The notes beneath the pieces were generated by a model that worked only from the letters and a program-made list of their open reading frames with translations, made no database searches and was not told the DNA's origin. A stretch of DNA of 12,985 nt, taken from IMG/VR virus record IMGVR_UViG_2645727562_000001, positions 1-12,985 of that record; one strand, 5' to 3'. Position 1 is the first letter of the stretch. Every line of letters begins with the position of its first letter. Positions 5,430-7,841 of this stretch are shown here, in pieces. The stretch is from a virus (taxonomy: Duplodnaviria; Heunggongvirae; Uroviricota; Caudoviricetes). The translations under genes were made by a program, and so were the position numbers.

Positions 5430-6153
<724 letters not shown>

Positions 6154-6160
6154 CACGTAA

Positions 6161-6598
6161 ATGATTAAAGAACGTATTTCTTATATCATTCCGATTGCGA
6201 TGGATGAAGGCAACCCAGTAACTCCAGTTCTTATCTATGAAATGGATAAAGACTCCCATGAAGTGGATCTATCATTTGGCGCTTTTTTTATCGGCCTTAA
6301 GGCTACAAAAAAATATTCCATAGGCATTGAGGTTTTCAATGCTCAAGAAATACCGATACCAATTGACACAAAACTGTACTCCAACCATAAGTTTTTTACG
6401 GTAGCAGAAGCCAACGATGGAGAAACCATCGTATCAACTTCTATGAGAATTAACTTCCCAAGGGTGAAAATTATCAAGCCTGGGATATTCGAAGTTAGAG
6501 CATCACTGGTTAATCCTGATAAAGGCGAAGTAATTGATGTAAAAAGTTCGTTTTTTGACGTGAAGATAACAGGATCAGTTCGCGATGAGTTTAGATAA
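6161..6598 (+). CDS. Unknown soluble protein, 145 aa; first gene of the cargo cassette in the rexA position
   Basis: ORF starts 8 nt after the cI stop codon. Markedly AT-rich compared with cI. No transmembrane segment or recognisable catalytic motif; alternating hydrophobic pattern suggests a beta-rich fold. The downstream gene overlaps it by 14 nt. Confidence 0.6.
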   Translation: MIKERISYIIPIAMDEGNPVTPVLIYEMDKDSHEVDLSFGAFFIGLKATKKYSIGIEVFNAQEIPIPIDTKLYSNHKFFTVAEANDGETIVSTSMRINFPRVKIIKPGIFEVRASLVNPDKGEVIDVKSSFFDVKITGSVRDEFR

Positions 6599-6956
6599 CA
6601 AGGTTGCTCAGCTTCGTCCAAATCAAAACATATCTCGCCCAATTGGACACTATTCCACTGATGATGCATACTCACGGCATGGTGGAGGAAACGGCGGAGG
6701 TAACATGCTTGAGGCTAGAGTTGCAAAGCTAGAGTCTGATGTTGAATACATCAAGCGCGATCTCGCTGAAGTAAAGTCAGATATAAAATCTGTAGATTCT
6801 CGTCTGTCAGGTATTGAGACAAGCATTAGCTCAGCAAAAATCACCATCAAGGCATCTGCGGTCGTTGTCAGTTTCGTGTTCGCATTTTGCGCCTACATTT
6901 TTGGAAGTTATGTTTCCAAAATCCTTGATGCCTTAAACGGACTCGTTCTTAAGTAA
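6585..6956 (+). CDS. Coiled-coil protein with a single C-terminal transmembrane helix (XhlA-like architecture); second cargo gene in the rexB position
   Basis: The 123-aa ORF overlaps the upstream gene. An alternative ATG at 6705 is preceded by GGAGG at a 4-nt spacing and would give an 83-aa product starting MLEARVAKLESD. Features: Gly-rich low-complexity N-terminus (HGGGNGGGN), heptad-like coiled coil (LEARVAKLESDVEYIKRDLAEVKSDIKSVDSRLSGIE), then a hydrophobic anchor (ASAVVVSFVFAFCAYIFGSYV). Confidence 0.6.
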   Translation: MSLDNKVAQLRPNQNISRPIGHYSTDDAYSRHGGGNGGGNMLEARVAKLESDVEYIKRDLAEVKSDIKSVDSRLSGIETSISSAKITIKASAVVVSFVFAFCAYIFGSYVSKILDALNGLVLK

Positions 6957-6962
6957 CACACA

Positions 6963-6990
6963 ACCCGGCCTCAGCGCCGGGTTTTCTTTG
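6963..6990 (+). terminator. Rho-independent terminator of the cI-cargo operon (tImm-like)
   Basis: Stem ACCCGGC / GCCGGGT with a 6-nt loop, followed by TTTCTTTG, 7 nt after the cargo stop codon. The flanking sequence resembles the lambda region between rexB and OL as recalled. Confidence 0.6.
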
Positions 6991-7146: not shown

Positions 7147-7209
7147 AACCATCTGCGGTGATAAATTATCTCTGGCGGTGTTGACATAAATACCACTGGC
7201 GGTGATACT
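7147..7209 (+). promoter_or_regulatory. Left operator OL3-OL2-OL1 with pL promoter, lambda type
   Basis: OL3 7147-7163 (AACCATCTGCGGTGATA), OL2 7167-7183 (TATCTCTGGCGGTGTTG), OL1 7191-7207 (TACCACTGGCGGTGATA). pL -35 TTGACA 7181-7186 and -10 GATACT 7204-7209. Matches the canonical lambda pL/OL sequence; pL reads rightward in this window. Confidence 0.92.
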
Positions 7210-7277
7210 AAACACATCAGCAGGACGCACTACTCACCAGGGCGGTGAATATACAACGATTCGAATATGAATCTACG

Positions 7278-7292
7278 GCGCTGACAAAGCGC
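7278..7292 (+). promoter_or_regulatory. nutL boxB hairpin (GCGCU-GACAA-AGCGC)
   Basis: Perfect 5-bp stem with 5-nt GACAA loop about 60 nt downstream of the pL start, matching the hairpin at nutR and the P22-type boxB as recalled. No convincing boxA is seen upstream. Confidence 0.55.
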
Positions 7293-7302
7293 AATAACCA
7301 AA

Positions 7303-7445
7303 GTGAACTTTGGGGTGTGGTGAAGGGTTCATGGACGGGAATATGTCGCACGTAAAGCGGCGAGGCCTGCGGGACTATTGCCGAATTGAAGTAGGCCGAA
7401 ACAGGTCGAAATGGGTCTCCCACCTACCACACCACCAAAGTTCAT
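7303..7445 (+). promoter_or_regulatory. Long-range stem in the N leader, adjacent to the N ribosome-binding site (RNase III-site analogue)
   Basis: TGAACTTTGGGGTGTGGTG (7303-7322) is complementary to CACCACACCACCAAAGTTCA (about 7425-7444) with one bulge, enclosing about 100 nt. The N Shine-Dalgarno GGAGG (7448-7452) lies directly 3' of the stem. Lambda has an analogous GGGGTGTGTG / CACACACCACC leader stem. Confidence 0.5.
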
Positions 7446-7457
7446 CAGGAGGTCTAT

Positions 7458-7841
7458 ATGACACGCAGAACTCAGTTCAAAGGCAATTCACGTTCTCGTC
7501 GTCGTGAGCGTTTAAAGGCAAAGGCATTAGCTAACGGCGTACTGGCCCGCGAAGAAGCAATAAGTTCAGAAGTATTACACCGCCCTACTCTAAGCAGAGC
7601 GCAGATTCAGGCTAAAGGTACTCACGAAACGCCTGAGCGCATAGAAGACGCTAAGCCAATTAAGTTCATGGCACAGGACGTGATCTGGCAACAGAAAGAA
7701 TACAGACGCAATCTGGAGAGAGCGGCCATTGTGTACGCGAATGAGTTTGGGCATAGGCAACCAGAAACTGGTGTATGTCTTCCAAATGTAGCTCTTTACG
7801 CGGCAGGCTACAGGAAATCAAAACAACTGACGGCGAGGTAA
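7458..7841 (+). CDS. N: N-family transcription antiterminator, non-lambda type
   Basis: 127-aa protein directly downstream of pL and nutL with GGAGG Shine-Dalgarno. N-terminal arginine-rich motif (GNSRSRRRERLKAKALA). C-terminus LPNVALYAAGYRKSKQLTAR resembles the P22 N-like (gp24) C-terminus as recalled. Not similar to lambda N. Confidence 0.85.
   Translation: MTRRTQFKGNSRSRRRERLKAKALANGVLAREEAISSEVLHRPTLSRAQIQAKGTHETPERIEDAKPIKFMAQDVIWQQKEYRRNLERAAIVYANEFGHRQPETGVCLPNVALYAAGYRKSKQLTAR

Follow-up and report, generated by a model that had tools for sequence, protein, structure and literature searches.

In the window (the whole 12,985-nt stretch of DNA that was analysed), the leader of the N message contains a long-range helix, which is the HK97/933W-type member of the known family of lambda N-leader hairpins and, as such, a largely expected feature. 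By analogy with lambda, this helix is probably (we would put the probability at roughly 0.75) the present phage type's version of the RNase III-sensitive N-leader hairpin, at which nutL would be parted from the N ribosome-binding site. Three properties went beyond the first-pass annotation of the same DNA: the core of the helix is nearly invariant, its 5' arm can instead pair locally with another partner, and the 100 nt that it encloses are exchangeable.

The window corresponds to the early-left control region of a phage or prophage of the lambdoid group, given here in the direction of pL transcription, and contains the following features:

5440-6153: cI, lambda-type (Pfam Peptidase_S24 and HTH_3)
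6962-6983: Timm-like terminator (terminator prediction)
7181-7209, plus strand: pL promoter, TTGACA-17-GATACT, within lambda-type OL operators (promoter scan; position in agreement with the annotated mEp234 record, which gives pL, oL1-3 and +1)
7278-7292, plus strand: nutL boxB hairpin GCGCUGACAAAGCGC of the P22/HK97 type (predicted hairpin; annotated as boxB in mEp234; identical to the P22 nutL boxB)
7298-7313, plus strand: predicted local hairpin CCAAAG-UGAA-CUUUGG, sharing the core of the 5' arm and ending at the presumed cleavage site
7303-7322, plus strand: 5' arm of the helix, comprising outer stem 7303-7308, core UUUGG 7309-7313 and inner stem 7314-7322 (folding and covariation)
7323-7424, plus strand: apical interior, cassette 'class 0', with a multi-branched fold (BLAST and interior classification)
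7425-7445, plus strand: 3' arm of the helix, comprising inner stem 7425-7433, unpaired A7434, core CCAAA 7435-7439 and outer stem 7440-7445
7447-7452, plus strand: N Shine-Dalgarno sequence (SD) AGGAGG (sequence), 5 nt upstream of ATG 7458
7458-7841, plus strand: N antiterminator gene of the HK97/933W type, 127 aa (ORF list; Pfam N_peptide PF25694, E = 1.7e-15)

The pL transcript starts at about 7216. By BLAST, the leader and the start of N were 99-100% identical to those of HK97, HK106, mEp234, phage 86, 933W-like phages and many Stx1a and Stx2a phages; the leader was found in 610 of 5426 complete E. coli genomes (~11%), and copies of the window N that were 98-100% identical were present in 80 viral contigs. 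The mEp234 record, which has the same leader, annotates pL, a putative boxA (corresponding to 7226-7234) and boxB (7278-7292), and leaves the interval from boxB to N blank. No feature was annotated under the leader match in the five genome records listed, and the N-leader helix was absent from the genome annotations examined and from Rfam, in which searches at gathering and permissive thresholds gave no family for the element and left the window without a match at E ≤ 10 beyond noise. Two reading frames that overlap the leader were rejected as genes: a minus-strand ORF at 7217-7423, which had no Pfam match, and a plus-strand ORF at 7310-7507, both of which cross cassette boundaries that differ between phages. 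Further upstream, the interval from cI to the Timm-like terminator, where lambda has rexA-rexB, is occupied by ORFs of 145 aa (6161-6598) and 123 aa (6585-6956) with no Pfam family above threshold; this pair (6161-6956) may form another type of accessory or exclusion module encoded by the prophage.

In the helix, 5'-GUGAACUUUGGGGUGUGGUG-3' (7303-7322) pairs with 5'-UACCACACC-A-CCAAAGUUCAU-3' (7425-7445), such that 7303-7313 pair with 7435-7445, 7314-7322 pair with 7425-7433 and A7434 is bulged. The first-pass annotation had described an imperfect duplex of 18 bp between 7303-7322 and about 7425-7444, enclosing about 100 nt and ending 3 nt before the SD. The duplex itself and its position next to the SD were borne out, and the enclosed length was counted as 102 nt; the helix, however, consists of 20 pairs (18 Watson-Crick and two terminal G.U), its 3' arm extends to 7445, and its 3' end lies 1-2 nt upstream of the SD. 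The folding it had proposed as a check returned the same stable long-range pairing, with the helix present in both the minimum free energy (MFE) and the centroid structure from RNAfold, whether the whole leader or the hairpin alone was folded. The whole leader (7216-7475) gave z = -3.28, with 1 of 200 shuffled sequences folding as well, and the hairpin (7295-7452) gave z = -4.28, with none of 200. An inverted-repeat finder listed the two halves of the helix separately. The stem finder identified the helix as the longest long-range stem of the leader, and in 1000 dinucleotide-preserving shuffles the longest stem had 8-16 pairs, a length of 20 being reached in none. The long-range N-leader helix therefore exists in the window and is stable and non-random. 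A reading of the stem as a terminator was rejected, as no U-run follows it.

For comparison with other phages, N loci were gathered by protein and not by stem, thereby avoiding preselection of the stem. Viral contigs were scanned with queries from five N-protein families (HK97-type N, lambda N, P22 gp24, a Klebsiella N and phi80 N), to which a genome-contig scan (4 loci) and reference phages were added; start codons were set by local tblastn, resulting in 345 leaders, of which 201 were unique. Each leader was searched for its longest stem with at most one interruption and ending no more than 80 nt from the start codon. This maximal-stem finder was preferred because MFE folds of 340-nt upstream pieces gave spurious outer pairs and RNAduplex was too permissive. 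Among the 201 unique leaders, the same helix was found in nearly all of the HK97, lambda and P22 types and in part of the phi80 and Klebsiella types. The longest stem lacked the TTTG/CAAA motif in 33 unique leaders, mostly from distant phi80 relatives but including four of the P22 type; in three leaders of this kind (L005 and the Klebsiella leaders L092 and L093), the helix could nevertheless be seen by eye. In leaders of the phi80 type (L002, 830-871; L323-L338), the 3' arm and the SD are separated by an additional small hairpin, CCCGC-AUCA-GCGGG, so that the helix ends about 35 nt from the start codon. Abutment on the SD is therefore not universal.

The helix is made up of three zones. Its outer stem differs by N family (GUGA(A/G)C/GUUCAU, GGC/GCU, GAGAUGG(G)/(G)CCAUUUC or GGAAUGU/ACAUUUC). 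In the core, in which 5'-UUUGG pairs with CCAAA-3', four of the five pairs were invariant in 56 haplotypes and the fifth was G-C in 53 of them; the unpaired purine 5' of the CC is A or, sometimes, G. The inner stem, of 7-11 bp, occurs in at least 14 different sequences, each of them complementary, for example GGUGUGGUG/CACCACACC, GAUGCGAUG/CAUCGCAUC, GAAAGCGU/GCGCUUUC and, in P22, ACUGGCG/CGCCAGU. One lambda-type subtype (L105) has UUUGA/UCAAA and no bulge. The length of the interior ranged from 40 to 200 nt across leaders.

Covariation was scored on a gapless alignment (A3) of 56 distinct arm haplotypes with the 20-pair structure. Of the alignment cells, 88.8% were paired, compared with 39-46% when the partner was slid by 1-3 columns; changes on both sides of a pair were seen at 15 of the 20 pairs (203 cells, against 30-66 for slid partners), and the covariation score was 0.487, against 0.06-0.145. 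Neither the score nor the percentage of paired cells was matched in any of 500 shuffles. As the haplotypes had been located by a stem search anchored on TTTG/CAAA, these values are biased towards pairing near the core; the covariation signal comes from the inner and outer positions, for which fixed offsets were used. Selection for pairing in the N-leader helix is therefore well supported. This agrees with the first-pass annotation, which had argued for selection on RNA structure and suggested looking for compensatory change in related phages: the changes in the stem were compensatory, extensively so across N families, and not disruptive. Apical interiors were unrelated in sequence while the base was kept, and the base is thus the selected part. 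The comparative set shows constraint on the helix base only, and as a natural series of covarying pairs in a long-range mRNA helix it is unusually clean.

The closest known counterpart of this structure is the hairpin of the lambda N leader that RNase III cuts, reportedly described by Steege et al. in 1987, Kameyama et al. in 1991 and Wilson et al. in 2002. The order of elements is the same in both (pL, nutL, hairpin, N ribosome-binding site), and the lambda leader has GGCUUUGGGGUGUGUG / CACACACC-A-CCAAAGC at the place where the window has GAACUUUGGGGUGUGGUG / CACCACACC-A-CCAAAGUUC, the bulged A being shared and the enclosed stretch being similar in length (about 90-100 nt). Judging by this match of the arms, the window helix is homologous to the lambda hairpin, which the earlier description had called an analogous stem, kept in position and partly in sequence; CUUUGGGGUGUG and CACACC-A-CCAAAG are common to both phages. 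The two differ in that the outer stem of the window has 6 bp, compared with 3 in lambda, and ends closer to the SD, while the apical interior is unrelated in sequence, and N and the nutL boxB are, as also claimed before, of another type: the window N is 22-27% identical to phi80- and lambda-type N in forced alignments, and its boxB is GCGCUGACAAAGCGC where lambda has GCCCUGAAGAAGGGC. Cleavage of the lambda leader by RNase III we take to occur at +88/89 and +197/198. In lambda numbering these cuts fall at UUUGG|GG and CC|AAA, within the invariant core, and would have the staggered geometry expected of RNase III. The length of the window helix, about 20 bp, likewise fits an RNase III substrate. 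The lambda N leader is named among the targets of RNase III, with Steege 1987 cited as the source (PMC5371410), and cleavage of the hairpin is said, in secondary accounts, to uncouple N translation from repression by N/Nus at nutL (PMC5725501; PMC5371410).

In the mechanism proposed for the window leader, lambda is the model for cleavage itself, for where the cuts would fall and for how N translation would be affected. A pL transcript starting at about 7216 would carry nutL first (boxB, 7278-7292); the 3' arm would emerge some 120 nt later and close the 20-bp helix, equal to about two turns of double-stranded RNA, which would bring nutL near the N ribosome-binding site. As long as the leader was intact, the N/Nus complex at nutL would repress N translation in cis, with the helix adjoining the SD. 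RNase III would then cut both strands within the conserved core, by homology with lambda after G7313 and C7436, severing nutL from the N message and leaving the latter with a leader of about 21 nt, such that N synthesis would follow host RNase III activity. No report of RNase III cleavage of HK97/933W-type leaders was found in the literature searched, and the sRNA paper of Tree et al. (2014) does not contain the N leader. N is the first gene to be expressed once a phage infects or is induced, and all delayed-early expression is gated by it; in Stx-converting phages with this leader, the route to toxin production is therefore under the same gate. Should RNase III set N translation as in lambda, development of HK97/933W-type phages would be coupled to the growth state of the host through this helix.

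As to how cleavage might act on N, the predicted probability of the SD being unpaired rose from 0.014 in the full leader to 0.23 in the processed leader of lambda, compared with a change from 0.001 to 0.004 in the window. With predicted accessibility barely altered by processing, relief of direct SD occlusion finds no clear support in the window leader. Taken together with the distance between helix and SD in phi80-type leaders, this makes separation of nutL from the message the more general reading.

An improbable alternative is that the helix is structural and not a nuclease site, compacting the 220-nt leader so that N/Nus at nutL comes to lie beside the ribosome-binding site, or masking the region adjacent to the SD, with RNase III irrelevant in this phage type. 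The geometry would suit such a role: boxB (7278-7292) lies about 10 nt from the 5' end of the helix and the SD 1-2 nt from its 3' end, C7298-C7299 are paired with G7448-G7449 of the SD in the MFE fold, and a structured leader has been suggested to make the loop from nutL to the SD compact (PMC5725501). Compaction is, however, compatible with cleavage, lambda having both, and masking is difficult to reconcile with a predicted SD accessibility that is already very low without the helix and with the remoteness of the helix from the SD in phi80-type leaders. Moreover, a 20-bp helix in E. coli would be an expected RNase III substrate in any case.

While cleavage by RNase III would account for the helix, it does not explain why UUUGG/CCAAA should be nearly invariant, as the sequence preferences of the enzyme are weak (PMC5371410). 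A possible second pairing may offer a better reason: just upstream, CCAAAG (7298-7303) can pair with the 5'-arm core CUUUGG (7308-7313) across a UGAA loop. Corresponding local hairpins were found in lambda-type leaders (CAAAGC-AGAAG-GCUUUG), in the UUUGA subtype (UCAAAGC/GCUUUGA, in which the changed base meets an upstream U) and in P22-type leaders (CCAAAC/GUUUGG, in which the G before UUUGG is paired locally but forms a G.G mismatch in the long-range helix), the chance probability of each being about 0.01-0.02 by shuffling; no clean local helix was found in phi80- and Klebsiella-type leaders. A three-way pairing constraint of this kind may explain the frozen core. As the long-range fold was better by 11 kcal/mol (-61.7 vs -50.4), the local hairpin would either form transiently during transcription or make up the 3' end of the cleaved nutL fragment, and on these predicted folds it could guide folding or protect the 3' end of that fragment after cleavage.

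The 5' arm also coincides with an element known by another name. Its GGGGUGUGG sits at the place of the classical nut 'boxC', which in lambda nutL we take to be GGTGTGTG; the element equated here with the 5' arm reportedly goes back to Olson, Flamm and Friedman in 1982. A comparable arrangement is found in the leader-trailer helix of E. coli rrn operons, which serves pre-16S rRNA excision. In both cases a nut-like site is followed by a G/U-rich 5' strand (boxC, UCUGUGUGGG, in rrn; GGGGUGUGG in the window) that pairs with a distant complement around a structured RNA to form a substrate for RNase III (in the window, by analogy); the G/U-rich strand of the window, GGGGUGUGGUG, pairs with CACCACACC-CC 100 nt downstream. 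In rrn, boxC provides the 5' side of the helix that RNase III cleaves, and the antitermination complex has been proposed to keep it ready for its distant partner (PMC10250234; PMC6614801); by the same analogy, an antitermination complex holding the 5' strand near the RNA exit could help long-range pairing in the N leader. Unlike in rrn, the window helix encloses 100 nt and not 1.5 kb, and the product that matters is the mRNA. The N leader can thus be likened to a miniature of the rrn arrangement; it is not counted as a member of the rrn boxC type, because no canonical boxA precedes the helix, and no homology with rrn boxC is claimed. A search of 7216-7302 gave no GCTCTT(T)A, and the only candidate was a weak 'putative boxA', CGCACTACT, at 7226-7234 (mEp234 record), about 80 nt upstream, the boxA-boxC spacing in rrn being about 18-19 nt. 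Other hairpins of phage mRNA, in T7 early mRNA and in lambda cIII and int (sib), are cleaved by RNase III, with altered translation or stability of the neighbouring gene (PMC5371410). Those hairpins are local, however, and often cut on one strand, whereas the window helix is long-range, closes a branched domain and is tied to a nut site.

The enclosed sequence behaves as an apical cassette. Among the 84 unique interiors, 18 mutually unrelated classes were distinguished, reshuffled between N families: class 0, that of the window, occurs with HK97-, lambda- (CL707, L145, L172) and phi80-type N and also in PA2/ArgO145, and class 7 occurs with HK97- and lambda-type N. Between the window and phi80, PA2/ArgO145 and CL707, in which nutL and N are different, the class 0 interior shows 91-97% identity, and the BLAST matches end precisely at the arms (query 93-225 or 1-102). 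The positions of this mosaic unit, delimited by BLAST, are:

7323-7424 of the window: class 0 interior
701-830 of leader L002: class 0 interior
701-832 of leader L003: class 0 interior
701-833 of leader L004: class 0 interior

In most classes the fold is branched, the 5' strand being followed by a linker of 2 nt and the last hairpin stacking on the 3' strand. The window-type interior had too little variation for a test of its sub-helices, double changes being seen at two pairs only.

In one class the cassette is derived from a tRNA. Class 6, from 12 P22-type leaders, was recognised as a tRNA by both ARAGORN and Rfam (RF00005, 38.1 bits, the gathering score being 29). Its D and T arms are canonical, its anticodon loop of 15 nt is aberrant, and its acceptor stem doubles as the hairpin's inner stem. 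The register is shifted, such that the bulged A is nt 72 and CAA, not CCA, follows nt 73. Its location is:

492-572 of leader L194 (also in L185 and L234; P22-like viral contigs): tRNA-derived element, tRNA-Pro/Ala by ARAGORN, also detected by Rfam

In class 8 (L296), a perfect canonical T arm, GAUGG-UUCGACU-CCAUC, is stacked on the inner stem. ARAGORN found no tRNA in the window or in 81 of the 84 cassettes, and Rfam gave no match for any cassette class other than class 6. In the window, A-CCA (7434-7437) follows the inner stem, but this stem has 9 bp, where a tRNA would be expected to have 7, and the CCA is paired with UGG of the 5' arm. Separately, the cassette of a metagenomic leader (L337, class 17) contains AGCTAGTTGGTGAGGTAATGGCTCACCAAGGCGACGA, which resembles a segment of 16S rRNA.

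Two further readings start from these cassettes. According to the first, which we consider rather unlikely, the helix would be a modular lambdoid processing element, the core of which switches between local and long-range pairing and marks the cut, and the processing of which frees the exchanged 40-200-nt cassette as a separate structured RNA; this cassette, of tRNA origin in some P22-like phages and resembling an acceptor end (helix + R + CCA) in most, could act in its own right or be acted on by RNase P or other tRNA enzymes. A simpler view is that, with selection acting on the base only, the helix can be capped by any RNA with pairing ends.

The second, to which we give still less weight, holds that the helix serves to hold a processed small RNA, with the inner stem, unpaired purine and CCA mimicking the acceptor end of a tRNA and a functional cassette RNA being freed through cleavage at the UUUGG|G junction by RNase III, RNase P or both. 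A purine-CCA does follow a helix of at least 7 bp in 53-56 of the 56 haplotypes, and E. coli RNase P cuts hairpin-like phage RNAs with RCCA, including a phi80-induced RNA (PMC5499578; PMC10731613), although strong pairing of the RCCA by the leader, as here, would disfavour that enzyme (PMC10731613). The tRNA of class 6 and the T arm of class 8, both built on the inner stem, would also be expected of such a holder, as would the near-identity of the class 0 cassette across phages with unrelated flanks; the shifted register of class 6, and the scarcity of ARAGORN and Rfam matches in the window and the remaining cassettes, would not. Furthermore, inner stems of 7-11 bp provide no constant 12-bp acceptor/T ruler, and UUU/AAA, which a tRNA mimic does not need, is invariant as well. 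The evidence against a general tRNA mimic is stronger than the evidence for it.

That the arms are mere short homologies at mosaic junctions, linking recombining modules and having no function as RNA, is very improbable: such linkers would fit the reshuffling of cassettes and flanks among N families and the breaks in the BLAST matches, but predict no complementarity between the arms, let alone at least 14 different inner stems that are all complementary, and are contradicted by the covariation.

Two observations were made in passing on related phages. The Stx2 phages PA2 and ArgO145 have an rrn-type boxA (TGCTCTTTAACAA) together with a phi80-like copy of the hairpin (in PA2, 515-535 and 690-836 of leader L003), and no N-like gene is annotated or obvious downstream. 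In BP-4795 (L005, position 841) and in the lambda RefSeq record (L001, position 539; 35438), the annotated starts of N fall within the leader hairpin, resulting in proteins of 149 and 133 aa, respectively; as the conserved start lies after the hairpin, these N-terminal extensions are probably annotation artefacts.
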